Shown here: positions 9-18,165 of the stretch, piece after piece
How positions within the stretch are numbered: position 1 is the first letter of the stretch
Layout: each line of letters starts with the position of its first letter
DNA from: an uncultured virus (IMG/VR IMGVR_UViG_3300008108_000201)
Lineage: Duplodnaviria > Heunggongvirae > Uroviricota > Caudoviricetes
Length of the DNA: 20,000 nucleotides
Direction: 5' to 3' (one strand)
IMG/VR virus record: IMGVR_UViG_3300008108_000201
The notes under the pieces: generated by a model
What the model saw: the letters and a program-made list of their open reading frames with translations, nothing else
What the model was told of the DNA's origin: nothing
Databases searched by the model: none
Made by a program: the position numbers and the translations under genes

Positions 9-317
9 ATGCAATCGAGATATCAAAACATACCAGTAACTAAGTTAGATGTAACCGGAAGCGCTTACTATCAAACTAACGTATATCCGACAATACAGCC
101 AACCGATAGTGATTACTATGTTATTACAACTGTAAACGACAGGCTAGACTTAATTGCTTTTGACTTTTATCAAGATTCAAGTCTTTGGTGGATCATTGCT
201 TCCGCAAATGCATTACCAGGAGATTCAATCTACCCGCCTATAGGTGTTCAGCTGAGAATTCCTACCAACATTCAGACCGTACTAAATAATTATAACTTAG
301 TAAATAATGGCTATTAA
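9..317 (+). CDS. Baseplate wedge / tail X-like protein with LysM-like fold (T4 gp53-like)
   Basis: Motif DRLDLIAFDFYQDSSLWWIIASAN...G.QLRIP is typical of phage LysM/gp53/tail-X proteins; overlaps the start of the hub-like gene; start lies in a TAATG stop/start overlap. Confidence 0.75.
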   Translation: MQSRYQNIPVTKLDVTGSAYYQTNVYPTIQPTDSDYYVITTVNDRLDLIAFDFYQDSSLWWIIASANALPGDSIYPPIGVQLRIPTNIQTVLNNYNLVNNGY

Positions 318-3300
318 GTTATCAAATGTTATTGGTGCCCCGTTTAGTGACGACGTACTAAGACAGATAGCAATCAGAGCACGTCGTAATAGTACTTTAA
401 GTAGGTCTGGGGAAGATGTTTTATTTCTAGCCAATAAAACAGCATGGGCACGTCTTACTTCGTCTGTTAATATAGTTACCTTGACAGAGAATGACAGAAC
501 TTCTTTTTTCTCTAGATTGAATCTAAGTCCTGGTGAATATCCTACCCCTGATTCATTAGCCCGAAATTGGATACTAGAGGCAGGAACATCAATACAAAAT
601 GGTAACGGTATTACGATAAGACAAGGAATAGGAGCAAACGGAGCATACGGCCTCGGAGGTACAGACGAGTTAGGATACAGACCTATGCCCGGTTTAGTAT
701 CGGTGCAAATCGAAACTACTGGACGTTTAGGATCCCTCAGGCAAGCGACTATAAACTTTAAGGTCTGGAATATGAACCAGCTTAATATTATTGAAGCTTT
801 ATATTTCCGCCTAGGCTACTCTATGCTACTTGAGTGGGGACATACTCAATACTTCTCTAATAAGGATTCTAACAACAACGATATTCCAGGCGGTATTTTC
901 GTTTCAAACGGCATTTACGGAATCGATAACCCTTTCAGTTCGGGTAGAACAAAAGAAATAATTCAGCAAGATATCGCTAGAAAAGTAAGAAAGACTTCTG
1001 GAAACTACGATGGAATGCTTGGTATTGTTTCTAATTTTAACTGGTCTTTCAATCAAGAAGGAGGTTACGACTGTAATATAAGGTTAATAGGTCTTGGAGC
1101 TATAATGGATTCATTGAGAATAAACCAAGCTTATACCTTACCGCAAGGAGAAATTAAAAAATTCAAAGAAAATCAGAGTGCATTAGAAAGGTTAGCGCAA
1201 AGTAATTTAGCAGCGCAAACTCAAGCTGAGGCAGGCGGTACTGAACAATTTAATTTAGAACCGTTACCTAAAAATCCTGCTGAACTTTTTGCATTAGTAG
1301 CAAAGTATAAAGGTCCTCAAAACCTCACTTATCAGCAATTCATTCAAGATTATTTAGCTATAGGAATAGATAATTTTCAGACCGGTAAATATTTTGATAC
1401 GCAATATGTAATTTTTGATCAATCAAGAACTAATCAAGACTTACAAACTTTAGAAGCAGTTAATCAAAAATTTGGAGGTTTATGGGTACCAAGAGGAAAC
1501 GTATACTACAATTTAAATCCTGCAACTTCTACGTCAGTAACCTTAAATGTAAAGAGTAAAAACGGGAGTTCGATTACAAGTTTCGTAGACGAGTATTTCA
1601 GACTTAATCCAAATCAATTAACAGAAGCATATAAGGAAGGAGCCGTATCGTACGAAGCCCTAGCCCTGCTATTTCAACTCCAAACTAAAGACTACGTTCT
1701 TTCTGGAACTAACGGACAAGTACAGACCGTCCCGTTAGACAGTATTCTCATCAGTACTGAAGCATCTCGTGTGGGCGGTAATGATAAAGTAGAAAACCAA
1801 GGAGATTTAATACTAAGATACAGTATTAGATTAGGTGCTCCTGCAAATAGAGACAAAGAAATTTATTTTAATTTACAAGGCGTAGTTGATAGCCCGGACG
1901 TAAATCGTCCGGTAACTAGAAAAATCGCAATCGAAGCCTTAGATAAATGGATAACCAGTGACGGTACAGCTACAGTATCAGAAGTTGAAGCCCCAGAAAG
2001 CGAGTTAGTGACGATAAAAGGTAGTTTTCAAACACCAGTAACAGTACAAAATACTACTAAAATAATCAACTGGTACTTTGAAACTAATAACCCCGGGTTT
2101 ATATTATCTTCTGCTGAAGCTCAAACACCTCAGCCTGTTATCACCCAGGTTACACAAGAGGCTAACACAGGTGATAATAACGGACAGCTAAATCAACCTG
2201 ACACTCAACAGATCGATTCTGCAGAGAGTTTTCAATCTGCACTGCACGCTATGTTAGCGATTGTACAAGTAGAAAGCCAGATTGAAGCAAAGAATGAATC
2301 GTTAAATAAACCTGTAATTCGAGTAGATATTACAAAAATAACTAACGACTTTTATAAAGGAGGTATTTTTGAAAAAGTACTTCTCACTACACAGAGTAAT
2401 CAGATACAGAGTAATCAATTTGATATAACTCAGTACGCACTAAGAGGCTTCAATAGCGATTTTATCGCATACCCTGATGATAAGATCAATAACGGAACAT
2501 CAGCTCAATCAACAATAGCCGCAAATGTTCCTGTTGTAAATTTTGCAGATCTCTGTAAAGCTTATGTTGTAAGATATCCGAAAGTTCGTCCCGACGGGTC
2601 ACTTGATACCGTCCATATTCCGGTGTATATAACGTTTGGATATTTGCTCGCGTTCCTCAACAATATGTGCCTTATTTACGATTCAAAGCAAAAGACTGAT
2701 TCCTTGCAGGAGTCGGTAGGCACTGAAAAACGTCCTTATGTTTACTTAGATTTTAATCCTGAAACTAATTTCTGTTTGAGCTCACCTCAGCAGCTAACTG
2801 TGGATCCTTACACTTGTTTAATTCCCTTTAATTCTACAAGTACCGAGTATAGAGAACTTTTTGCAGAAGGAATAAAGACTGATAATTTTTTTAATCCAGA
2901 GAATCAAAACCGGGTTAGTGCTGCATTAAATAATTTTGGTTTATCTTATAAGTCAATCACCAACGTTTATCAAGGAAAGATAATGAATGTTCTCTTGAAT
3001 ATTGATTATTTATTAGGGCTAATTAAACAGTATGCAGGTGCAGATAAAGAACATGCTGTTAATTTACAGCCGTTTTTAGAAAGAATAACTGTAGATATAA
3101 ACAAGTCTCTTGGTAATATAAACTCATTAAGGGTCGCTTATAGAGACGATGCAAATACGATACAGATAATCGATGATCAGTGGGTACCTAATTTAGACGA
3201 AGAGAAATCACTAATAGATAGACCTAAATATCTAGATAGTCTAAACCAATCAAAAGATCCGATTTTATCCGGACAGCTGCCAGTGTTCGAAGCCCCGAGT

Positions 3301-4569
3301 CTCGGATTAGATCAACCAAACGGAACTTTTAGTATAGCTAGAGAATTTCAATTTAAAACTACACTGTCTACTAAACTAGCAAGTACTATTGCTATTTCTG
3401 CTCAAGCTGCTACCGGTTCTGTAAACGCTACAGACCATTCTTCTTACAGTTGGCTTAATAAAAATTATCAAGACAGGTATAAACCTTACGTACAGGATCC
3501 TCCAAACAAGAACAAAGGTACAAATAGTAACACAGCCGGAAACGTAGGTAATGTTAACGAGACATCTAACGATCAAAAAGCAGCAGATACTTTTAACACC
3601 CATGTGGCGAGTATATATTCAAATCTTCAATTAACTGAAGAGAGGATCGATATGGCCAAGAATTACTACATAGAGAGAATGTCAAAAGTAAAGTCTACGA
3701 GTAGTACAACTACAGCAGCCCCTTTCATCCCAGCCGATCTAGAAATAACTATCGACGGTATCAGCGGTATAATAATGACTAATGCGTTTACCATCCCCGA
3801 AAGTAGATTACCATTGTCGTTAAGAGCGGAAGACGGGTATACAAAGGTGGGTTTTATTATAACCGGGTTATCACATACTGTCGAAAATAATCAGTGGCTG
3901 ACTAGGATTAAGGGGCAAATGATAAAACTAAGAGAGGATTCACTATTAAGAAATCGAATATTTACTTTCAATAGAAATCAGAGCGAATTTGCACCCCCAG
4001 CCGGTACAGCTGCATCTACTACTATCACAAATACACCTTGGAGTGCTGCATTTATTAGTTACGTCATGCGCCAGGCCGGAGTGTCATTTCCTTCGAATGC
4101 AAGTCATGCTGGATATGCGCAATCGTTGAGAACTAATAGCAGGGGATTCGAGATCTTAGATCCTGCTAGAACACAAGTTAAGGTAGGGGATATAGTAGTA
4201 AAGAATAGAAGAAATACTCAAGGAGTTTCAAATACCTTAACTTTCAACACTAATCCCTGGGACGGAGCAACTCACGGTGATATTGTAGTAAGTGTAAATA
4301 ATAATATTATAGCAGCTATAGGAGGCAACGTAAGTAGTACGGTATTCAAATCTAACATTCCCTTAACGAACGGACTATTAGCCACAGGTACAAGTGCTGC
4401 TCCAAACTTTTTCGTTATTTTGAGACCTCCTGCTAGCTTCGTACAGGCAATAGTAGATGTAGCTAATAGAGAGTACGAATTATGGACATCGCAAAGATGG
4501 GTTGAGTCGACAGTTGCTGCGATTCCAACTTTGCGGCTTTACTACAATACTGTTAATATATTCATATAA
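307..4569 (+). CDS. Large baseplate hub-like virion protein with C-terminal DUF2272 (CHAP-like) putative peptidoglycan hydrolase domain
   Basis: 1420 aa; N-terminal RPMPG..SV.I...GSLR.ATINF...LLEWGH and GNYDGMLG.VSNF.WS blocks; late LEITIDGISGI...F.ITGLSHT...W.T.I.G block resembling hub proteins; C-terminal PWSAAFISYVM, GDIV, HGDIVV, IGGNV. Confidence 0.65.
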   Translation: MAIKLSNVIGAPFSDDVLRQIAIRARRNSTLSRSGEDVLFLANKTAWARLTSSVNIVTLTENDRTSFFSRLNLSPGEYPTPDSLARNWILEAGTSIQNGNGITIRQGIGANGAYGLGGTDELGYRPMPGLVSVQIETTGRLGSLRQATINFKVWNMNQLNIIEALYFRLGYSMLLEWGHTQYFSNKDSNNNDIPGGIFVSNGIYGIDNPFSSGRTKEIIQQDIARKVRKTSGNYDGMLGIVSNFNWSFNQEGGYDCNIRLIGLGAIMDSLRINQAYTLPQGEIKKFKENQSALERLAQSNLAAQTQAEAGGTEQFNLEPLPKNPAELFALVAKYKGPQNLTYQQFIQDYLAIGIDNFQTGKYFDTQYVIFDQSRTNQDLQTLEAVNQKFGGLWVPRGNVYYNLNPATSTSVTLNVKSKNGSSITSFVDEYFRLNPNQLTEAYKEGAVSYEALALLFQLQTKDYVLSGTNGQVQTVPLDSILISTEASRVGGNDKVENQGDLILRYSIRLGAPANRDKEIYFNLQGVVDSPDVNRPVTRKIAIEALDKWITSDGTATVSEVEAPESELVTIKGSFQTPVTVQNTTKIINWYFETNNPGFILSSAEAQTPQPVITQVTQEANTGDNNGQLNQPDTQQIDSAESFQSALHAMLAIVQVESQIEAKNESLNKPVIRVDITKITNDFYKGGIFEKVLLTTQSNQIQSNQFDITQYALRGFNSDFIAYPDDKINNGTSAQSTIAANVPVVNFADLCKAYVVRYPKVRPDGSLDTVHIPVYITFGYLLAFLNNMCLIYDSKQKTDSLQESVGTEKRPYVYLDFNPETNFCLSSPQQLTVDPYTCLIPFNSTSTEYRELFAEGIKTDNFFNPENQNRVSAALNNFGLSYKSITNVYQGKIMNVLLNIDYLLGLIKQYAGADKEHAVNLQPFLERITVDINKSLGNINSLRVAYRDDANTIQIIDDQWVPNLDEEKSLIDRPKYLDSLNQSKDPILSGQLPVFEAPSLGLDQPNGTFSIAREFQFKTTLSTKLASTIAISAQAATGSVNATDHSSYSWLNKNYQDRYKPYVQDPPNKNKGTNSNTAGNVGNVNETSNDQKAADTFNTHVASIYSNLQLTEERIDMAKNYYIERMSKVKSTSSTTTAAPFIPADLEITIDGISGIIMTNAFTIPESRLPLSLRAEDGYTKVGFIITGLSHTVENNQWLTRIKGQMIKLREDSLLRNRIFTFNRNQSEFAPPAGTAASTTITNTPWSAAFISYVMRQAGVSFPSNASHAGYAQSLRTNSRGFEILDPARTQVKVGDIVVKNRRNTQGVSNTLTFNTNPWDGATHGDIVVSVNNNIIAAIGGNVSSTVFKSNIPLTNGLLATGTSAAPNFFVILRPPASFVQAIVDVANREYELWTSQRWVESTVAAIPTLRLYYNTVNIFI

Positions 4570-5295: not shown

Positions 5296-6591
5296 ATGTA
5301 TTACATAGTTGAGACTAAAGAACAGCTTGCAAAGTTACCTAAAACGGATAAATGCTTTGTTGATTTAGTTGCACTTTCCGAAGAATCACATCCTCTTCTT
5401 ACTGTCCCTTCCGCACTCTATTACAACGACTTCGAAAAAGGGTATATTATACCAATTAATCACTCAGAAGGATTTTCTCTAAGTCTAGACGATATACAGA
5501 ATTTTCTGTTTGAGATCGACAAAGTTTACCTGCTAGATAAAAAATGGCATTCCTACTTTCTCTATTTGCCGCAAGCCGTAGACCTATACTTCAATATTCT
5601 AGATAAAGATGGAGAAATCAAAGATATTCAATGCTACACACCTGTTCATCTAGACTTCTATAATAAGTTCAAGTACTCAGAAGAAGTAAATACTCTAATA
5701 CCAATATCTAAGCATTACGAAAAGTGTGAATGTATGTTTAACGCGGTAAAAGACTATGCCGGAAGGGAAAGTAATGTAGAATGGCAAAATGAGTATATAA
5801 AAGCGTATAAATGGGTAGAAGAACAGGGTCTGACTGTAAATGAAAGGGTTTTCGATAAGTTTTTTGAGCCTACATGGAAGGCTAGATCTGTGAAAGATAA
5901 CCGAATCTACACAAGCTATAACCTTTACAACATAACCTCTAGGCCTACCAATGCATTTAATGGAATTAACTTTTTAGCCTTCAATAAAGAGAACGGATCT
6001 AAGACGGCTTTTGTACCTCAAAACGATGTTCTTGTAGAGTTTGATTTTGATGGGTACCATTTGAGATTGATTGCAAATATGTTAAACGTATCCCTACCTT
6101 CTGATGAATCTATTCACGTTATTTTAGGTAGACAGTATTTTGGAAAGGAAGAATTAAGTTCGGAAGAATATCAAGAATCTAAAAAAATAACTTTCCGGCA
6201 GCTCTACAACGGGATTGAAGAAAAATATAAGCATATAGAATTATTTGATAAGGTTAACTGGCTACTCGAGGCAGGATGGGCTGAATATAAAAGGAAAGGC
6301 TTTCTTGAATTACCAAACAAGCGAAAAATAAAGATAGAAAACGCCAATCCGCAGAAGCTTTTTAATTACTATGTTCAATGTCTAGAGACCGTAAACAATG
6401 TAAAAAAGTTAATTGATTTACGCGAGTTATTTAAAGGGAAAAAGAGTAAAGTCATCCTGGTAGTATACGATTCAATTCTTATTGATTATTCAACTGAAGA
6501 CGGAAAAGGATTTTTAAAGCAGATCAAAGATGTTTTGGAAAAGGACAGATATAGGGTGAAAGCACAAAAAGGCGATAACTACAACTTTTAG
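5296..6591 (+). CDS. polA: Divergent, short family-A DNA polymerase-like protein
   Basis: TSRPTN (TGRLSS-like), motif A EFDFDGYHLRLIA, motif B YQESKKITFRQLYNG, NYYVQ (N..IQ-like), motif C LVVYDSILID; only 431 aa. Confidence 0.8.
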   Translation: MYYIVETKEQLAKLPKTDKCFVDLVALSEESHPLLTVPSALYYNDFEKGYIIPINHSEGFSLSLDDIQNFLFEIDKVYLLDKKWHSYFLYLPQAVDLYFNILDKDGEIKDIQCYTPVHLDFYNKFKYSEEVNTLIPISKHYEKCECMFNAVKDYAGRESNVEWQNEYIKAYKWVEEQGLTVNERVFDKFFEPTWKARSVKDNRIYTSYNLYNITSRPTNAFNGINFLAFNKENGSKTAFVPQNDVLVEFDFDGYHLRLIANMLNVSLPSDESIHVILGRQYFGKEELSSEEYQESKKITFRQLYNGIEEKYKHIELFDKVNWLLEAGWAEYKRKGFLELPNKRKIKIENANPQKLFNYYVQCLETVNNVKKLIDLRELFKGKKSKVILVVYDSILIDYSTEDGKGFLKQIKDVLEKDRYRVKAQKGDNYNF

Positions 6592-6604: not shown

Positions 6605-6613
6605 TATTTATTA
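6605..6613 (+). promoter_or_regulatory. TATTTATTA motif, candidate phage late promoter
   Basis: Identical 9-mer in three short intergenic gaps (6605, 11802, 14011). Confidence 0.45.
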
Positions 6614-7032
6614 TGGCATACATTGAACTAACGCAAGACCAATTGAAGAATAAGTTATTTTGCACATTTTCTCCTAAAGACCGGCTGGATGACACCCTTA
6701 ACTTGATACAGGGGGAATACTCTATCATGTACGGTAAGATTTTTGTGTTAGAGTCAATCGATTCAGAAGAGCTTCTCTGTACTTATAATATTGAGATTGA
6801 AGGTAGTACTACAAGAGTATTACCGAATACCATCCTACTACATAGAAAAAAAGAGACAAACACTCTTTACACTATTAATAGCCTTAATCTGCTTATTAAA
6901 ACACTTAATGAAGGAGTTCTCGATACTTCCTTCCGGATTAATTGGCACGATTACAAGAACACAGTCCTCCTCTCGCAAGGAGATGAGCTTAAGAAGCTTT
7001 CCACAAAAATTCACAAAATAGTCAACATATAA
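6613..7032 (+). CDS. Hypothetical phage protein (alternative start TTG at 6643)
   Basis: 139-aa ORF filling the gap between polymerase and SSB; NKLFCTF and HRKKETNTLYTINSLN blocks. Confidence 0.7.
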   Translation: MAYIELTQDQLKNKLFCTFSPKDRLDDTLNLIQGEYSIMYGKIFVLESIDSEELLCTYNIEIEGSTTRVLPNTILLHRKKETNTLYTINSLNLLIKTLNEGVLDTSFRINWHDYKNTVLLSQGDELKKLSTKIHKIVNI

Positions 7033-7101: not shown

Positions 7102-7908
7102 ATGGGTATGGATTTAGGCGCAATCAAGTCTAAACTAAGTGCCTTGCAAAGCCAAAAGCAAGGCGGTCAAAAGAGAGATATGTCTCTCATTCTCTGGAAA
7201 CCTACAGTAGGTAAGCATTCTGTGCGTATTGTACCTGCGTTGTGGGACAAGGCAAATCCTTTTAAGGAGATTTTAGTTCACTACGGTATCGGTAACCGTA
7301 CTATGATTTCTCTCGTTAATTTCGGGGAGAAAGATCCAATCGTTGAGTTCGCCAAGCAGCTTGCATCAAGCGGGGACAAGGAAAATTGGATGATGTCTCG
7401 TAAGCTCGAACCAAAAATGCGCGTTTTCACACCTGTGATTGTTCGCGGGGAAGAAGAGAAGGGTGTTCGCCTTTGGGAATTCGGTAAGCAGATTTACGCT
7501 GAACTTTTAAGTCTTGCTGATGATCCGGATATCGGAGATTATACCGATGTTATTCAGGGTCGCGATATCACTATCGAAACTACTGGACCTGAAACTAACG
7601 GTACTTCCTTTAATCAATCCAAGGTACGTGTTCGTACCAAAACTACTCCTTTGTCCGAAGATGCAGCCGAGGTACAAAAGTGGTTAAATAATCAACCAGA
7701 TGTATTTTCTATCTTTAAGAAGTACCCTTACGACGAAATGAAAGAAGCACTTCTTGGCTGGTTGAATCCAGAAGAGACTACTGACGAGCCTGCTCCTGCT
7801 ACACCTAAACAAGAAGCTGCACCAGTTGAAAAGCCTGCTTCTCTTTCCCTAAATACTCCGAAGGCTAAACCAAGCATTGACGAGGAATTTGATGACCTAT
7901 TTAAGTAA
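7102..7908 (+). CDS. Single-stranded DNA-binding protein, T4 gp32-like
   Basis: WKP..GK..VRIVP, LWEFGKQIY..L, D.TD...GRDI.I blocks; Pro/Ala linker and acidic-aromatic tail IDEEFDDLFK; next to the recombinase. Confidence 0.8.
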   Translation: MGMDLGAIKSKLSALQSQKQGGQKRDMSLILWKPTVGKHSVRIVPALWDKANPFKEILVHYGIGNRTMISLVNFGEKDPIVEFAKQLASSGDKENWMMSRKLEPKMRVFTPVIVRGEEEKGVRLWEFGKQIYAELLSLADDPDIGDYTDVIQGRDITIETTGPETNGTSFNQSKVRVRTKTTPLSEDAAEVQKWLNNQPDVFSIFKKYPYDEMKEALLGWLNPEETTDEPAPATPKQEAAPVEKPASLSLNTPKAKPSIDEEFDDLFK

Positions 7909-7915
7909 TTAATTT

Positions 7916-8992
7916 ATGGCTAAACTAGCTAAAGCCTCGTTAAACGAAAGTGTAGCGGGAGCTGTCAAGGGTACTTTTAACTTAGAGAAGTTTATTCAAT
8001 CAAAAAACCTCTCAAGTACTTCGATAAAAATGAAAGAGCAGACTTGGATTCCTTTATCTAAGGCCTTTCAAGATTGCCTATCTATTCCAGGCATTCCAGT
8101 AGGACATATCACGCTACTTCGCGGACATTCTGATACCGGTAAGACTACTGCTCTCCTCGAGGCTGCAGTTAGCGCACAGAAGATCGGTTTTTTACCTGTA
8201 TTCATTATTACTGAGATGAAGTGGAATTGGGAACACGCCAAGCAAATGGGACTCGTGTTCGAAGAAGTACCTAACGAAGAAGGCGAGGTTGCTGACTACA
8301 AAGGATTTTTTATCTATGTAGATAGAGAAAGACTTAATACTATTGAGGATGTAGCAGCATTTATCGCCGATCTTCTCGACGAACAGAAAAAAGGTAATCT
8401 TCCCTACAACCTATTATTCCTTTGGGATTCTGTAGGATCTATTCCTTGCCGTCTATCTGTTGAGTCAAACAAGAACAATAACGAGTGGAACGCAGGCGCA
8501 ATGTCTCAACAGTTTGGTAACTTTATCAACCAGAAGATTGTTTTGTCCCGTAAGCAAAGTCAACCTTATACTAATACTATGCTTGCTGTAAATAAAATCT
8601 GGGTAGCTAAAGCAGAGAACATTATGGCCCAGCCTAAGATGAAGAACAAGGGCGGTGATACTATGTACTTCGATGCTTCCTTAATTATTACTTTCGGAAA
8701 TGTAACTAATTCCGGAACTAATAAGATTAAAGCAACTAAGAATGGAAAGGATGTAGAGTTTGCAAAGCGTACTAAGGTTAGCTGCGATAAGAATCACGTT
8801 AACGATGTTACATCGACCGGACGGGTTATTATGACTGCACACGGGTTTATCGATGATACTAAGCAAGCAATCGATGCTTATAAGAAACAATACTCTAAAG
8901 ACTGGTTAAAAACTCTCGGCTCAGTCGATTTTGATGTAGTAATTGAAACCGATGAAGACAACAAAGATGTATTTGATCCTACCGAGGAATAG
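7916..8992 (+). CDS. recA: RecA/UvsX-like recombinase
   Basis: Walker A GHSDTGKT, FIITE, Walker B LFLWDSVG, KGG..MYFDAS, KNHV; adjacent to SSB. Confidence 0.85.
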   Translation: MAKLAKASLNESVAGAVKGTFNLEKFIQSKNLSSTSIKMKEQTWIPLSKAFQDCLSIPGIPVGHITLLRGHSDTGKTTALLEAAVSAQKIGFLPVFIITEMKWNWEHAKQMGLVFEEVPNEEGEVADYKGFFIYVDRERLNTIEDVAAFIADLLDEQKKGNLPYNLLFLWDSVGSIPCRLSVESNKNNNEWNAGAMSQQFGNFINQKIVLSRKQSQPYTNTMLAVNKIWVAKAENIMAQPKMKNKGGDTMYFDASLIITFGNVTNSGTNKIKATKNGKDVEFAKRTKVSCDKNHVNDVTSTGRVIMTAHGFIDDTKQAIDAYKKQYSKDWLKTLGSVDFDVVIETDEDNKDVFDPTEE

Positions 8993-9007: not shown

Positions 9008-9445
9008 ATGACGAGAATTAACATAGGTATTCCACCTAAGGAGTTAACTAATAAGCATTTAATTGCTGAACATAGAGAGTTAAAGCGCATACCAAACGTT
9101 GTAGCAAAGGGTAAATATAATCTCAAGAGCGTTCCTCAAGAGTTTACCCTGGGTAAAGGTCATGTATCATTTTTTTACGACAAGCTAGGATATTTAAAAG
9201 AGAGATACATTGACCTCTACAACGAATGTATATTTAGGGGATTTCAAGTACAGAGTTATTTAGCGTCATGGGACGGTGTACCGCAAGAGTTAATGAATAG
9301 TTATACTCCAACAGATAAGGATATTTGTATAATCCGTGAAAGGATAGCTGAAAGATTGGCTAATCCGATTGCAAAACAAAAAAAGAATGGATTACAGAAA
9401 GATGTTCGAGCAGATGGAGAAACAAGAGCCGGTAGACTTACATAA
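9008..9445 (+). CDS. denV: Pyrimidine dimer DNA glycosylase / endonuclease V
   Basis: MTRIN start (catalytic Thr2), HLIAEHRELKRI (Glu23-equivalent) and FTLGKGHVSFFYDKLGYL..RY match T4 DenV. Confidence 0.92.
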   Translation: MTRINIGIPPKELTNKHLIAEHRELKRIPNVVAKGKYNLKSVPQEFTLGKGHVSFFYDKLGYLKERYIDLYNECIFRGFQVQSYLASWDGVPQELMNSYTPTDKDICIIRERIAERLANPIAKQKKNGLQKDVRADGETRAGRLT

Positions 9446-10403
9446 GAATAGTAGAGTTTTAATTGTCGATTCGCTAAATACCTTCTTACGCAGTTTTACA
9501 GCAATTAGTCACATAAATCCAAGCGGGGCGCACATTGGAGGTCTAGGCGGCTTTCTTAAATCTATAGGAGCAGCTATAAGACAGTTACAGCCTACTAGGG
9601 TTATTCTAGTCTTTGACGGCCAAGGAGGATCTACAAATAAAAGATACCTCTACCCCGAGTATAAAGCAAATCGGCATATAACTAAAATCTCAAACTGGGA
9701 TGCATTCGACAACCAAGAAGAAGAATCTGAATCAATAACTGCACAAATTGTACGTCTAGTTGATTATCTCAAGTGTCTCCCTGTTGATTTAGTTATTATA
9801 GATAAAATAGAAGCCGACGACGTTATAGGGTATCTTGCAGGGCAATTTACCGAGAAGGTATTTGTATTATCAACCGATCAAGACTATTTACAGCTTGTTA
9901 ACGACAACGTTTTCGTTTTTTCTCCAATCAAGAAAATCATTTACGATCCCGCAACAGTTATCGAGGAGTACGGAATACCTGCCCATAATTTTCTAACCCA
10001 TAAAGTTATAGTAGGTGATAAGGGAGATAACGTACCTGGTGTTAGAGGTATTGCAGCTAAAACCTTAATCAAATTATTTCCTGCTATTACGTCGAGTGAG
10101 GAATTTACTTTAGAGAAACTACTAAATGAATGCGTAGGGAAGGATAAAAAGTATGCCGATGTTTATAATTTTCGCAATCAGTTAGAGATCAATAGGAAAT
10201 TAATGGATATTCAAAATCCAAACATTCCTGAAACGGATAAAGAGGTATTAAATCATATTATAGCCAATCACAATAACGAGTTTAATCCTGAGAGCTTCGT
10301 TAAGCTATACAACGAAGACCAGTTAGGTAAGACAATGCCAAGTCCACATTTATGGTTGAGTGAAATATTTTCAAAATTAGCTAAGTTCGAGTTGAAAAAA
10401 TAA
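9387..10403 (+). CDS. 5'-3' exonuclease / flap endonuclease (Pol I N-terminal domain or T4 RNase H-like)
   Basis: LIVDSLN, VFDG, YPEYKANR, EADDVI, STDQDYLQ, GDKGDNVPGVRGIAAKT (H3TH); ATG at 9387 preferred over TTG at 9369. Confidence 0.9.
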   Translation: MDYRKMFEQMEKQEPVDLHKNSRVLIVDSLNTFLRSFTAISHINPSGAHIGGLGGFLKSIGAAIRQLQPTRVILVFDGQGGSTNKRYLYPEYKANRHITKISNWDAFDNQEEESESITAQIVRLVDYLKCLPVDLVIIDKIEADDVIGYLAGQFTEKVFVLSTDQDYLQLVNDNVFVFSPIKKIIYDPATVIEEYGIPAHNFLTHKVIVGDKGDNVPGVRGIAAKTLIKLFPAITSSEEFTLEKLLNECVGKDKKYADVYNFRNQLEINRKLMDIQNPNIPETDKEVLNHIIANHNNEFNPESFVKLYNEDQLGKTMPSPHLWLSEIFSKLAKFELKK

Positions 10404-10425: not shown

Positions 10426-11799
10426 ATGGGAGTATTAAATCAGTTACAGCAGTATGGAGTAAGCTTTCAAATAAAAGTTTTATCAAGCCTACTTAAGCAT
10501 AGAGAATTTTTACAAAGTATTTATGATATACTAGAAGAAGATTACTTTGATAATCCAGCACATAAATGGATTGTTGAAGAGATACTGAAGTACCACTACA
10601 AATACCATACTACACCTACCCTCGACGTACTCCAAGTAGAGGTGAAGAAAATTGAAAACGAGGTATTAAAAGTATCGGTAATTGAGCAGTTAAAAGAAGC
10701 CTATAAAGCATCTAACGAAGATAGAGACTTTGTTGAGCAGGAGTTTTCTAACTTCTGTAAAAATCAGCAATTAAAGAAAGCGTTACTATCTTCTGTCGAG
10801 CTACTTGAAAAAGGTCAGTACGATGATATTCGTTACCTAATTGATACTGCACTAAAAGCAGGCCAAGATAAAAATATCGGTCACGAGTATGAAAAGGATG
10901 CCGAGACTCGTTATAGAATGGAAGAAAGAGCTCCACAGCCTACACCTTGGGAACATATTAACGAACTACTGCAAGGAGGTTTAGGTTCAGGTGATTTAGG
11001 TATTATCTTCGGGAATCCAGGCGGCGGTAAGAGCTGGATGCTCGTTGCATTAGGTGCAATGATTGTATCAGGCGGCGGTACTGTAGCTCATTACACCCTT
11101 GAACTATCAGAAACGTATATGGGTAAGAGATACGATTCTATTTTTACCGGTATTAGAATTCAAGATCTAGGTAAGCATAGAAAAGAGGTAGATGAAGCAG
11201 TGAGTAAATTACCTGGTAAGCTTATTATCAAAGAATTTTCAATGGGTAAAGCATCTATATCAACTATTGAGAGTCATATACAGAAGATTACCGATCTCGG
11301 ACATAGACCAGATCTTATTATTATCGACTATGTTGATCTTCTTAAATCTAAGAGAAAATCTATTGACAGAAAAGATGAGATAGATGATATTTATGTCTCC
11401 ACCAAGGCCCTGGCCCGTGATCTCAAGATACCAATTTGGACTGTATCACAGGTAAATAGAGCAGGTGCAAAGGACGATGTTATCGAAGGAGATAAAGCAG
11501 CCGGATCTTACAATAAGATTATGATTGCTGACTTTGCGATGTCGTTGTCTAGAAAGAGGTTAGATAAAGTTAACGGTACTGGTAGAGCACATATTATGAA
11601 AAACCGTTATGGCGGTGATGGTATGACTTACCCTGTGAAAATCAATACCGAAAACGGTAATATTGAAATAACAGCACGCGAAATGGGTGAGGATGAATTC
11701 GTTCAAGAAGGAGCTCCGATACCCGGAAAGCCGGTAACTGGTTTCAGTGCAGAAGAGAAAAATTTTCTACAACAAAGGTTTTTTGAATTAGGGAAATAA
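10426..11799 (+). CDS. dnaB: Replicative DNA helicase, DnaB/T4 gp41-like (SF4)
   Basis: Walker A GNPGGGKS, YTLEL, IIIDYVDL, WTVSQVNR, KNRYG. Confidence 0.9.
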   Translation: MGVLNQLQQYGVSFQIKVLSSLLKHREFLQSIYDILEEDYFDNPAHKWIVEEILKYHYKYHTTPTLDVLQVEVKKIENEVLKVSVIEQLKEAYKASNEDRDFVEQEFSNFCKNQQLKKALLSSVELLEKGQYDDIRYLIDTALKAGQDKNIGHEYEKDAETRYRMEERAPQPTPWEHINELLQGGLGSGDLGIIFGNPGGGKSWMLVALGAMIVSGGGTVAHYTLELSETYMGKRYDSIFTGIRIQDLGKHRKEVDEAVSKLPGKLIIKEFSMGKASISTIESHIQKITDLGHRPDLIIIDYVDLLKSKRKSIDRKDEIDDIYVSTKALARDLKIPIWTVSQVNRAGAKDDVIEGDKAAGSYNKIMIADFAMSLSRKRLDKVNGTGRAHIMKNRYGGDGMTYPVKINTENGNIEITAREMGEDEFVQEGAPIPGKPVTGFSAEEKNFLQQRFFELGK

Positions 11800-12133: not shown

Positions 12134-13990
12134 ATGGACATCTCCCAGAGCATCCTAAGTGATATTACAGTGTATATGAAATACGCAAAATTCAACCCAG
12201 ACTTAAATAGAAGAGAATCTTGGGATGAGTTAGTTGATAGAAATAAAGAAATGCACATAAAGAAATTCCCTCATTTAAAAGATGAGATTGAGGATGCTTA
12301 TACGTTTGTCTATGATAAAAAAGCTTTACCTTCTATGCGTTCTATGCAGTTTGCCGGTAAGCCCATTGAGATTAGTCCTAACCGTATATATAATTGCGCT
12401 TACTTACCTATAGACGATTGGAGAGCTTTCGGTGAGACTATGTTCTTGTTACTTGGAGGAACTGGGGTAGGTTATTCAGTGCAGAAACACCACGTTGATC
12501 AATTACCTGAAATCAGAAAACCTGATCCAAAGAAAAATCGTCGTTTTCTCATCGGGGATAGTATTGAAGGATGGGCCGATGCGGTAAAGGTACTCGTACG
12601 CTCTTATTTTGAAGGAGGATCCACTCCAGTATTTGATTTTTCAGATATTCGTCCTAAAGGTGCTCAACTAATTACTTCAGGCGGTAAAGCACCCGGCCCC
12701 CAGCCCCTTAAGGAGTGTTTACTAAAGATTCAAGGAGTATTAGATAGTAAGGAAAACAACGATAAATTAAAACCAATTGAGGTTCACGACATTGTATGTC
12801 ATATTGCAGATGCAGTATTAACCGGAGGTATTCGTAGGGCTGCTTTAATTAGCCTATTTAGCGCCGATGACGAAGATATGATTGCTGCTAAGTCGGGTCC
12901 ATGGTGGGAACGTAATCCTCAAAGAGGTAGAGCTAATAACTCTGCCGTTCTACTTCGCAGCAAGGCAACAGAGGAGTTCTTTATGAATCTCTGGGAGAAA
13001 ATTAAAGCATCAGGTGCAGGCGAACCAGGTATCTATTTCAATAATGATAAAGACTGGGGAACTAATCCATGCTGTGAAATCGCATTACGTCCTTATCAGT
13101 TCTGTAACCTGTGCGAGGTAAACGTATCAGACGTTGACGATCAAGAAGACTTAAATCAAAGAGTTAAGGCAGCTACATTTATCGGTACCTTGCAAGCATC
13201 GTATACCAACTTCCACTACCTACGCCCTGTATGGCAACGTACTACCGAAAAGGATGCCTTAATCGGCGTGGGTATGACAGGTATCGGATCAGGTGCAGCT
13301 CAAAAACTAGATCTCAAGCAAGCAGCCCAAATTGTGAAGGAGGAGAATGAAAGAGTAGCTAAGCTAATCGGTATTAATCCTGCAGCAAGATGTACTACTA
13401 TTAAACCATCTGGTACTTCATCTCTGACTTTAGGTACATCAAGCGGTATTCATGCATGGCATAACGATTATTACATCCGCAGAATCCGGGTAGGTAAGAA
13501 CGAAGCAATCTATACTCATTTATCGATTCATCATCCTGAACTTGTTGAAGACGAATACTTCCGTCCACACGATACTGCTGTTATTTCAGTACCGCAGAAA
13601 GCACCAGAAGGATCTATTTTACGTCACGAATCTGCTTTACAGCTTCTAGAAAGAGTGAAGTTCTTTTATCAGAATTGGATCAAACCTGGACATAGAACAG
13701 GTCAAAACACTCACAATATATCAGCTACAGTTTCTATTAAAGATGCAGAATGGGAAGAAGTAGGTAAGTGGATGTGGGAAAATCGTAAGTTCTACAACGG
13801 ACTTTCTGTACTTCCTTTTTCAGAACACACCTATAAACAAGCTCCTTTTGAGGATTGTACTGAAGAGCAATATGAAGAACTCATGAAAAGTCTTACTAAT
13901 GTAGACCTCTCACAAGTAGTTGAATTTGTTGATAGTACGAATTTAATGGGAGAAGTAGCTTGTGCTGGTGGAGCTTGCGAAGTAGTTTAG
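12134..13990 (+). CDS. nrdJ: Class II (adenosylcobalamin-dependent) ribonucleotide reductase
   Basis: PSMR, NCAY, GGTGVGYS, GGIRRAA, active-site TNPCCEI, CNL.EVN, IKPSGT, C-terminal redox pair CAGGAC; no ATP cone, no intein, no adjacent beta subunit. Confidence 0.92.
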   Translation: MDISQSILSDITVYMKYAKFNPDLNRRESWDELVDRNKEMHIKKFPHLKDEIEDAYTFVYDKKALPSMRSMQFAGKPIEISPNRIYNCAYLPIDDWRAFGETMFLLLGGTGVGYSVQKHHVDQLPEIRKPDPKKNRRFLIGDSIEGWADAVKVLVRSYFEGGSTPVFDFSDIRPKGAQLITSGGKAPGPQPLKECLLKIQGVLDSKENNDKLKPIEVHDIVCHIADAVLTGGIRRAALISLFSADDEDMIAAKSGPWWERNPQRGRANNSAVLLRSKATEEFFMNLWEKIKASGAGEPGIYFNNDKDWGTNPCCEIALRPYQFCNLCEVNVSDVDDQEDLNQRVKAATFIGTLQASYTNFHYLRPVWQRTTEKDALIGVGMTGIGSGAAQKLDLKQAAQIVKEENERVAKLIGINPAARCTTIKPSGTSSLTLGTSSGIHAWHNDYYIRRIRVGKNEAIYTHLSIHHPELVEDEYFRPHDTAVISVPQKAPEGSILRHESALQLLERVKFFYQNWIKPGHRTGQNTHNISATVSIKDAEWEEVGKWMWENRKFYNGLSVLPFSEHTYKQAPFEDCTEEQYEELMKSLTNVDLSQVVEFVDSTNLMGEVACAGGACEVV

Positions 13991-14316: not shown

Positions 14317-16275
<1,959 letters not shown>

Positions 16276-16289
16276 TTTAAATAGACGTT

Positions 16290-16754
16290 ATGAGTGTATT
16301 TCGATCAACTAAGCTATTTGACGGGTATAGTTGTGTATTCCGTCAATGGAAAGCAGAAGGCACACATTGCCGATTTCTTCACGGGTACGGAGTATCATTT
16401 AGAGTATGGTTTGAAGGTGACTTAGACCATCGTAATTGGGTCTGGGACTTTGGAGGTATGAAACGTGCTAAAGGTACTATTGACGGTATGAATCCTAAAG
16501 CCTGGATGGATTATATGTTTGACCATACAACTGTTGTAGCAGAAGATGATCCGTACCGCTCTTATTTTCATAATATGTACGAAGAAGGGATAGTTCAACT
16601 AAGAGTACTTCCTGCAGTCGGAGCTGAACAGTTTGCTAAATTCATTTTCGAAAAATTAAATACATTCGTTCAGGAGGAAACTGAAGGTAGAGTTAAGGTA
16701 GTAAGAGTTGAATTTATGGAAAATAACAAAAACTCAGCTACGTATGAAGAGTAA
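16290..16754 (+). CDS. queD: 6-carboxy-5,6,7,8-tetrahydropterin synthase (QueD/PTPS family)
   Basis: HCRFLHGY, WVWDFG, FDHT, GAEQFA and E...NSA.Y motifs; queE nearby. Confidence 0.9.
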   Translation: MSVFRSTKLFDGYSCVFRQWKAEGTHCRFLHGYGVSFRVWFEGDLDHRNWVWDFGGMKRAKGTIDGMNPKAWMDYMFDHTTVVAEDDPYRSYFHNMYEEGIVQLRVLPAVGAEQFAKFIFEKLNTFVQEETEGRVKVVRVEFMENNKNSATYEE

Positions 16755-17138: not shown

Positions 17139-17354
17139 ATGAAGTGCATTAAAAACATCAAGACTGGTGATATCCAGCGCGTAGACGATCGTCAAGCCGA
17201 TGCTAAGGTCGGGAGTACTTGGAAGTTTATTCCTAAGTCTGAATGGAAGGCAGCTACGCGTAAACCTAAACCCGAGGTATTAGAGGCTGTTGAAGAAACT
17301 ATTTCTGAAAAACAATTAAAGCGTAAAAAGAATGTCAAAGATAGATCCAAATAA
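17139..17354 (+). CDS. Small basic hypothetical protein (71 aa)
   Basis: ATG ORF with GGAGG upstream; I.RV.D..A...V...WKF.PKSEWK block; overlaps the queE start. Confidence 0.65.
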   Translation: MKCIKNIKTGDIQRVDDRQADAKVGSTWKFIPKSEWKAATRKPKPEVLEAVEETISEKQLKRKKNVKDRSK

Positions 17355-18165
17355 GTTATTAATTAGTAGCGATTTTTATTCGGTCCAAGGCGAAGGTATA
17401 AGCAGCGGAGTACCCTCTTATTTCGTCCGCCTAGGTATCTGTAACCTAACGTGCGGTATGTCTCGTAGGTTTGCTAATGAACTAGCAAAAGAGCAGAAGT
17501 TAGAAGATGGGGAAATATTTGAGGGGGACCTAGTTAAAGAAGGTAAAGCCACTTGGACTTGTGACAGTACAAGCCAATGGTTATGGAGAGGTGAAGATAA
17601 AGAATTTCAATATCTAATTGATAGATGGAAAGAGCAAGGCATTTACGAAGATATCAAAAACGGTGACATCCATATTATTTGGACTGGTGGTGAACCAACA
17701 ATTAAAGGGCATCAAGAGGCTATTGTTAATTTCTTTAAATATTGGAATTTAAATGGAGATTACAGCTGGCAAGTTTATAATGAAATTGAAACTAATGGTA
17801 CTGTAGTAATTGAAGATGATTTATTTAGTTACTTAAACCAAATCAACTGCTCACCTAAATTAGCTAACTCAGGTATGTCAGTTAAACAACGTATTGTACC
17901 CGATGCTATTAAACGTATAATGCAACATGGAAACTATCAATTTAAGTTTGTTATCTCGACTGAAGAAGATGTACAGGAATTATTCCGCGACTTTGTCGTA
18001 CCATTTAGCATACCTCTTAAAAATGTAGTGTGTATGCCTGGCTTAGATGATCAAGATGATTTCCACGAGCGCACTAACTTTGTTTTAGAAATGGCAAAAA
18101 AATATAAATTCCGTGGATTGACTCGTTTACATATTTCAGCTTGGAATAAAACATTAAATGTATAG
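17332..18165 (+). CDS. queE: 7-carboxy-7-deazaguanine synthase (radical SAM)
   Basis: FYSVQGEG, FVRLG.CNLTC...WTCDS, TGGEP, IETNGT, CSPKL, FKFV, RLH...W. Confidence 0.9.
   Translation: MSKIDPNKLLISSDFYSVQGEGISSGVPSYFVRLGICNLTCGMSRRFANELAKEQKLEDGEIFEGDLVKEGKATWTCDSTSQWLWRGEDKEFQYLIDRWKEQGIYEDIKNGDIHIIWTGGEPTIKGHQEAIVNFFKYWNLNGDYSWQVYNEIETNGTVVIEDDLFSYLNQINCSPKLANSGMSVKQRIVPDAIKRIMQHGNYQFKFVISTEEDVQELFRDFVVPFSIPLKNVVCMPGLDDQDDFHERTNFVLEMAKKYKFRGLTRLHISAWNKTLNV

Follow-up and report, generated by a model that had tools for sequence, protein, structure and literature searches.

The window described here—20,000 nucleotides of an uncultured tailed virus (IMG/VR record IMGVR_UViG_3300008108_000201)—encodes a family A DNA polymerase that, judged by homology, is a member of divPolA1, a phage polymerase family already in print. 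The gene (5296..6591, + strand) is an open reading frame (ORF) of 431 amino acids. In the predicted structure, its product keeps the large-fragment architecture of DNA polymerase I (Pol I), consisting of an exonuclease-like domain, palm, and fingers. Family alignment and model agree that the two-helix antiparallel thumb is lost. The nucleotide pocket bears a signature—a His gate, Tyr for R754 of Klenow, and Y-D-S/A in motif C—that holds family-wide, and the gene is the first of a conserved replication and recombination module. We lean toward the view that the window enzyme is an accessory, template-dependent, distributive, and non-proofreading DNA polymerase, which would carry out short synthesis together with the proteins of this module.

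An initial annotation, drawn from the sequence by eye, had already arrived at an active-looking enzyme that is no ordinary replicase, in a window without a visible primase. These parts of its interpretation stood. The family it described, however, has already been published as divPolA1.

Assignment to divPolA1

The window polymerase scores 25.6 bits to Pfam DNA_pol_A and thereby misses the gathering cut-off of 34.3. A search of NCBIfam returned no model, and a single-sequence phmmer search of the PDB yielded only an irrelevant flavohemoglobin (E 0.96). The closest cultured relative is Flavobacterium phage immuto, whose gp001 ("DNA polymerase family A") is 36% identical (E 2e-77, 99% coverage, 4 records) and reaches 42.7 bits to Pfam DNA_pol_A. 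Matching Klenow in the PDB needed a family profile rather than the single sequence. The profile was built from 140 diverse relatives—most of them 29–47% identical to the window protein, four closer—and finds Klenow with E 4e-11. These 140 relatives are the set to which all family-wide counts below refer; their lengths range from 412 to 463 amino acids.

The name divPolA1 was introduced in "DNA polymerase swapping in Caudoviricetes bacteriophages" (Virol J 2024; PMC11348598; preprint 10.1101/2024.04.26.591309). The main text of this study reports the family in 14 phages, immuto and relatives, with genomes of 155–190 kb. According to this text, the palm keeps its catalytic residues, the thumb is truncated, and each of the three catalytic Asp of the exonuclease domain is exchanged. 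It further reports a conserved replication gene set downstream and, at another place in each divPolA1 genome, a "regular" polymerase belonging to family A, B, or C. As the window protein is homologous to immuto gp001 and its module shows the same gene order, it belongs to this family, and no feature given in that text contradicts the membership. Beyond these 14 genomes, the family comprises 1073 clusters at 50% identity (E<=0.001; 491 at E<=1e-30) and a cultured cyanophage, Microcystis phage Mel-JY01. Among 90% clusters, 2296 homologues were found at E<=0.001, and 552 stretches in IMG/VR encode close relatives of the window polymerase. The homologue in Mel-JY01 (PP395634.1; locus L106, 6710-7936) is annotated as "hypothetical protein" and was not detected by Pfam DNA_pol_A at E<=0.01. 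Hence, the family is easily overlooked in annotation.

Fold and missing thumb

The AlphaFold2 model of the window polymerase (pLDDT 97.0, pTM 0.93) finds Klenow as its best match in Foldseek (E 1.2e-17, TMq 0.75). In VIA, it superimposes on the large fragment of Bst Pol I (580 residues) with Z 27.1 and an rmsd of 4.0, and the best 50 structural matches listed consist entirely of DNA polymerases I. Since 405 of 431 model residues are aligned to the Bst large fragment, the N-terminal ~175 residues can be equated with its exonuclease-like domain. The likeness to the Klenow and Bst large fragments thus covers the overall fold including this domain; it further covers the catalytic Asp pair and the equivalents of K758, F762, Y766, R668, N845, and Q849. 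The window protein is, however, ~150–175 residues shorter and the thumb helices are missing. A further difference to Pol I is that the 5' nuclease has a gene of its own, located four genes downstream in the window.

At the place of the thumb, only 18 amino acids separate EQGLTVN (5821–5841) from DNRIYTSYN (from 5896), exactly the number counted in the initial annotation. This remnant (ERVFDKFFEPTWKARSVK; 5842..5895, + strand) contains, according to DSSP of the model, a single seven-residue helix (183–189) and otherwise only loop. The alignment of the family profile to Klenow splits accordingly into the Klenow chain segments 201–233 and 314–583. This leaves ~80 Klenow residues without a counterpart in the window family—Pol I 558–637 in the usual literature numbering, which agrees with the Klenow chain index +323—and it is this segment that holds the thumb. 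From the Gly of ERNG to the Tyr of HTSY, Klenow spans 114 residues and the window protein 29; in 140/140 relatives, the same stretch amounts to 11–31 residues. Helices 137–154 and 161–177 of the model align in order, by eye, with the last exonuclease helix and the pre-ERNG helix of Klenow, which leaves no space where a thumb could lie in a different register. The structural comparison with Klenow that the initial annotation had proposed hence comes out in its favor: A normal thumb is not present in the model, and the two-helix thumb is missing.

Klenow remains active when the tip of its thumb is truncated, at the cost of processivity and fidelity (Minnick 1996, as cited in the text of PMC10061031). 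With the loss of the thumb, lower DNA affinity and processivity are to be expected, and by this analogy it is reasonable to infer a low processivity of the window enzyme.

The exonuclease-like domain (~aa 1–175; 5296..5820, + strand), included from residue 1 on when the model is superimposed on Pol I large fragments, is predicted to be catalytically dead. A missing ExoI motif had been pointed out for the window protein, and the same applies to the family: A conserved acidic pair is not found at the ExoI position among the relatives, where position 23 varies and Ile occupies position 25 in 107/140. ExoII and ExoIII of the window protein were judged by eye from the sequence only. Conserved in this domain are H32, H56, E58, K83, D96, N132, P136, K139, and E142. 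The idea of a new active site was set aside, as the "IPxxH" and "xD-hydrophobic" stretches correspond, by eye, to structural, non-catalytic motifs in the exonuclease domain of Pol I. Large fragments without proofreading are familiar from Bst and Taq.

Catalytic residues and nucleotide pocket

The alignment of the family profile to Klenow reproduces the register that the initial annotation had guessed, and all of its motif coordinates within the ORF proved exact on re-check. All motifs lie on the + strand. The β-hairpin Arg, R216, is located in TSRPTN (5935..5952), which aligns to TGRLSS of Klenow, and corresponds to R668. Motif A, DFDGYHLR (6043..6066), aligns to DYSQIELR and bears the catalytic D250 as well as H255, the latter at the steric-gate position of E710. 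Motif B, i.e., the O-helix (YQESKKITFRQLY; 6169..6207), places Y292 at R754 and K296, F300, and Y304 at K758, F762, and Y766. NYYVQ (6364..6378) provides with N357 and Q361 the equivalents of N845 and Q849. Motif C, VYDS (6463..6474), carries the catalytic D392 and reads Y-D-S against H-D-E in Klenow. On the level of the family, the profile pairs TgRPsN with TGRLSS, DydaYHlR with DYSQIELR, yeesKkitFkqlYG with RRSAKAINFGLIYG, nYliQ with NAPMQ, and YDSfLiD with HDELVFE. Each of the residue assignments made by eye is thereby retained.

Six residues—R216, D250, K296, Q361, E364, and D392—are invariant in 140/140 relatives, and F300 (134/140), Y304 (138/140), and N357 (116/140) are largely kept. 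The exchanged positions are similarly constrained. The gate position 255 is His in 138/140 relatives and Gln in the other 2, preceded by Tyr (115/140) or Phe (21/140) at position 254. Position 292, equivalent to R754, is Tyr in 102/140, Ile in 12, and Arg in 10. Y391 is found in 137/140, and position 393, equivalent to E883, is Ser in 107/140, Ala in 32, and Gly in 1, and never Glu. The two cultured relatives show the same pattern, with DFDGYHLR, YAKAKQINFHAIYG, and TYDAF in immuto and DYDAFHIK, YSDMKKLIFKNIYG, and LYDAF in Mel-JY01. As these changes are family-wide, they are no chance features of one sequence. The earlier impression of an enzyme that looks active rather than decayed is borne out by the six invariant catalytic or substrate-binding residues. 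The random motif decay that homologues might have displayed is not what they show, since the replacement residues themselves are conserved, most clearly H255 and Y391.

Other polymerase families usually have aromatic steric gates. His is as bulky as Glu, and the gate of the window family is therefore altered rather than opened or removed. The TV-Pol paper (PMC2579912) names four features common to the family A superfamily: a thumb of two helices, an Arg in the hairpin, a pair of Asp in the palm, and RxxxK. The window family retains two of these four, the hairpin Arg and the two palm Asp, while the thumb and RxxxK are altered. In the latter, found in the fingers, Lys is invariant and the Arg position is occupied by Tyr in the window protein.

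A conserved module and a linked small protein

Downstream of the polymerase gene and on the same strand, the window encodes a gp32-like single-strand DNA-binding protein (SSB; 7102..7908; Pfam gp32 E 1.7e-10, phrog_1192 E 1.1e-21) and a UvsX/RecA-like recombinase (7916..8992; phrog_97 E 5.3e-16, with Pfam RecA at 26 bits just below the cut-off). These are followed by a flap endonuclease/5'-3' exonuclease (9369..10403; Pfam 5_3_exonuc_N E 1.7e-31) and a DnaB-like replicative helicase (10426..11799; phrog_19 E 5.7e-77, Pfam DnaB_C E 8.6e-21). The order of SSB, recombinase, flap nuclease, and DnaB is the same in the window, immuto, and Mel-JY01.

Between polymerase and SSB lies a gene for a conserved protein of 139 amino acids (6613..7032, + strand). 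Among 95 viral-contig loci, a homologue of this small protein is found downstream of the polymerase in 91, and the other 4 loci end <=372 nt past the polymerase match. It directly adjoins the polymerase in the lineage of the window, in immuto, and in Mel-JY01 (E 2e-36); at more distant loci, an 84–101-aa form is located 1–2.3 kb downstream. The linkage to the polymerase gene is thus an observation; that the two gene products bind each other is our hypothesis. By pairwise identities, the small protein is better conserved than the polymerase: It is 56% identical to its counterpart in immuto (polymerase 36%) and 74% to that of L040 (polymerase 68%). In total, 3894 homologues were found, and 17 columns show no variation, including C17, C56, and H77-R78-K79.

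The small protein has no match in Pfam, PHROGs, or NCBIfam, and its profile finds nothing better than E 0.12 in the PDB. Its AlphaFold2 model is poor (pLDDT 59.6, residues 78–127 <50); in the confident part it is α/β and not an OB barrel. Compared with 48,161 chains in VIA, the best Z of 5.2—for ACT, RRM, and Rep-like ferredoxin folds—lies within the stated noise range. A search of BFVD returned only an uncharacterised homologue, and the best score in the ESM Atlas was 0.82, to unnamed viral clusters. Complex prediction with the polymerase (140 rows) and the small protein (44 rows) gave a score of 0.00 without controls, which speaks neither for nor against binding.

Other polymerases and primases in relatives

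Among the 22 window ORFs scanned with Pfam and PHROGs, no primase or second polymerase was found, in line with the initial annotation's remark on the primase. Its absence from view follows from the 20-kb frame, as immuto and contig G003, which belongs to the lineage of the window, each carry a DnaG-like gene.

The complete 160-kb genome of immuto encodes, next to divPolA1 and the DnaG-like primase, a second PolA of 777 amino acids with exonuclease and polymerase domains (193 bits to Pfam DNA_pol_A, 42 bits for the exonuclease). For the lineage of the window itself, five long IMG/VR contigs were considered, whose divPolA1 is 68–83% identical to that of the window. A canonical PolA (open frame of 770–791 codons, 201–204 bits) is carried by 4/5 of them. 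Two of these polymerases were looked at further: Both comprise 769 amino acids with exonuclease and polymerase domains (200–202 bits) and show ExoI as D-T-E-T, motif A as DYASLEPR, and an O-helix with RxxxK. In L087 and L088, the regular PolA has Leu at the equivalent of Klenow F762 (RQTAKGYALGVPYG). The complete 190-kb genome of Mel-JY01 combines the divPolA1 module with an 855-codon PolB frame (121.6 bits) and has no Pfam-detectable PolA. The note's view that the window enzyme is not an ordinary replicase gains its support from these canonical, exonuclease-proficient PolAs of immuto and the lineage and from the PolB of Mel-JY01. Between the lineage's regular PolA and the window polymerase, no pairwise similarity was detected (E 1.0), and hence, they are no recent duplicates. 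The DnaG-like gene of G003 is 48% identical to that of immuto; none was seen in the other 4 long contigs.

Possible function of divPolA1

The regular polymerases present in relatives argue for divPolA1 as an accessory enzyme and not the sole replicase. Bulk synthesis would be performed by the regular polymerase, and divPolA1 would act as a second enzyme on short stretches. While the regular polymerase varies between families A and B—and C according to the main text of PMC11348598—the divPolA1 module stays, which points to a separate, non-redundant task. The likeliest such task might be gap filling and Okazaki-fragment maturation together with the flap nuclease, corresponding to a Pol I split into separate genes; this is suggested by the flap nuclease gene nearby. 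The other likeliest task might be the extension of recombination intermediates made by recombinase and SSB, as their genes are nearby, too.

Several points weigh against such an accessory role. Judging from Klenow mutants, Klenow itself would be crippled if its R754 and E883 were lost, which leaves a pocket that works in another way or a substrate other than a standard dNTP. T4 and T7 accomplish Okazaki maturation without a second polymerase. A regular polymerase in the same genome as divPolA1 was seen in relatives only, and in contig G003 (57% complete), neither PolA nor PolB nor PolC gave a match. A full-text literature search for "divPolA1" retrieved only the 2024 paper and its preprint, and no biochemical study was found. 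Finally, the authors of PMC11348598 take the conserved context, in its main text, as a sign that divPolA1 acts in replication and consider the role of the "regular" polymerase less obvious.

This last point leads to an alternative that we regard as unlikely, namely that the module's true replicase is divPolA1 itself. Processivity would then be supplied in trans by DnaB, SSB, or the small protein—much as T7 polymerase borrows thioredoxin for this purpose—and the regular polymerase would be left with repair or other duties. The strictly conserved replication module that begins with divPolA1 and the tight linkage of the small protein fit this arrangement. So do the placement of the regular polymerase among chaperonin and nucleotide-metabolism genes and its exchange between families A, B, and C (own data and main text of PMC11348598). 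However, such a replicase would have to copy genomes of 155–190 kb, as given in the same text, with no proofreading, no thumb, and no R754 equivalent, and the lineage does possess an intact regular PolA, whose exonuclease and polymerase domains are found at 200–202 bits.

A rather unlikely reading is that divPolA1 and the small protein form a two-subunit enzyme, in which the small protein would replace the thumb or hold the single-stranded template and thereby confer a property beyond those of Pol I. Such a property might be that synthesis starts without a primer at recombination or replication intermediates, or that the uncharged His/Tyr/Ser pocket permits an unusual nucleotide substrate. If true, it would mark a widespread second route, in aquatic myoviruses, from a family A polymerase to a priming or specialised enzyme, independent of CCPol-MP.

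CCPol-MP of SCCmec is itself the model for another alternative, to which we give little credit, i.e., that divPolA1 is a PolA-derived primase or primer-starting enzyme whose small neighbor holds the single-stranded template. CCPol, as described in the text of PMC7581432 and PMC10061031, belongs to the family A polymerases, has a shortened thumb, and lacks a functional exonuclease. For de novo priming it depends on the adjacent small protein, and its gene lies upstream of a helicase. The window offers the same ingredients as these CCPol-MP/PolA-SSB primases: a family A enzyme with shortened thumb and no editing, the adjacent conserved small protein, and a helicase downstream. Yet, the exonuclease domain is cut in CCPol and the exonuclease-like domain complete in the window protein, CCPol keeps the E710 and F762 equivalents where Glu has become His here, and its partner is an OB fold, other than the low-confidence model of the small protein (pLDDT 59.6), which is α/β in its confident part. 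Moreover, relatives such as immuto and G003 have a DnaG-like primase. Pairs of this kind are reported in the text of PMC10061031 only on genomic islands of Bacillota—integrative islands with serine recombinases—whereas the window stems from a tailed phage with Flavobacterium and Microcystis phages as relatives.

It is very improbable that the window enzyme incorporates ribonucleotides or acts as an RNA polymerase. The appeal of this idea lies in the gate, with Glu replaced by His in 138/140 relatives, and in motif C, where Ser or Ala stands for Glu in 139/140, resembling the IHDS of T7 RNA polymerase. His is, however, not small, and T7 RNA polymerase has Gly at this position. T7 RNA polymerase also keeps the R754 equivalent, which is lost here, and the window protein keeps the equivalents of F762 and Y766. 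The best 50 structural matches listed for it comprise DNA polymerases I only. T7-like single-subunit RNA polymerases bear an extra N-terminal promoter-binding domain, for which 431 amino acids leave no space; instead, residues 1–175 of the window protein align to the exonuclease domain of Pol I. An RNA polymerase role is raised in the main text of PMC11348598 for divPolA2 of barbaviruses, the other divergent family A group. As described there, divPolA2 resembles the window protein in having no standard thumb and occurring beside a regular polymerase. It differs in that its N-terminus forms an unrelated globular domain, an exonuclease domain is missing, the gene context varies, and its structure matches RNA polymerases.

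An adaptation to copying or inserting modified nucleotides, such as 7-deazaguanine derivatives, has similarly slim prospects. It would give a meaning to a rebuilt nucleotide pocket under strong selection, to QueD and QueE 10 kb downstream in the window, and to QueC, QueD, QueE, FolE, QueF, and DpdA in immuto. However, the transglycosylase DpdA inserts the 7-deazaguanine base after replication, by base exchange in finished DNA, which makes a special polymerase unnecessary for insertion. In addition, 7-deaza changes face the major groove and are tolerated by ordinary polymerases.

That a polymerase duplication left the window protein behind as a decaying or non-catalytic relic—as its score under the Pfam cut-off (25.6 versus 34.3 bits) and the lost thumb, exonuclease acids, and R754 and E883 equivalents might suggest—has next to no chance and is disfavoured by the six residues invariant across relatives mostly 29–47% identical to it, by the conserved replacements (H255 138/140, Y391 137/140), and by lengths held at 412–463 amino acids.

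Thumb, RxxxK Arg, and steric-gate Glu are treated as near-universal in the well-understood family A polymerases. Here, a large and environmentally abundant phage family replaces all of them and keeps its catalytic core under strict selection. The function of divPolA1 would reveal what a thumbless Pol I is used for and whether its pocket has a useful substrate tolerance. It would also explain why phages with family A and with family B replicases both keep divPolA1. As a computational description of divPolA1 is already published, the remaining value lies in biochemistry and not in the discovery of the family. New beyond PMC11348598 are the size of the family, the accompanying small protein, and the family-wide pocket signature, on which the main text of that paper is silent. 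The words "steric," "ribonucleotide," "motif A," and "processivity" have 0 occurrences each in this main text, and the alignments of its Figure 5 may show the residues.

Further features of the window

The window is a tailed-phage fragment with ~34–42% G+C and all larger ORFs on the + strand. It encodes baseplate and tail genes. Upstream of the polymerase gene are a baseplate-wedge-like ORF (9-317; Pfam/PHROG scan), a 1420-aa protein (307-4569), and a 222-aa ORF. The 1420-aa protein carries a C-terminal DUF2272 (E 2e-18) and stands between the baseplate-like genes and the replication module.

Within the module, a denV-type pyrimidine-dimer glycosylase (9008-9445) precedes the flap nuclease; immuto has no denV gene at the corresponding place. 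The denV-like ORF overlaps the flap-nuclease ORF by 77 nt if the first TTG is the start of the nuclease, and the true nuclease start is probably a later ATG. Behind the helicase, the window encodes a class II (B12-type) ribonucleotide reductase (12134-13990, + strand), where immuto has class I NrdA/NrdB. The reductase appears to be exchanged at a fixed place in the module.

Further downstream, a 581-aa protein (14317-16062) is rich in Gly, Ala, Ser, and Asn, with ~17-residue repeats around "NSNF-x-G-x-x-AG." It has no Pfam or PHROG match and is probably a fibre. QueD-like (16290-16754; phrog_2389 E 7e-39) and QueE-like (17332-18165; phrog_2076 E 6e-39) genes follow, which by these matches point to 7-deazaguanine synthesis; the corresponding gene set of immuto is the fuller one.

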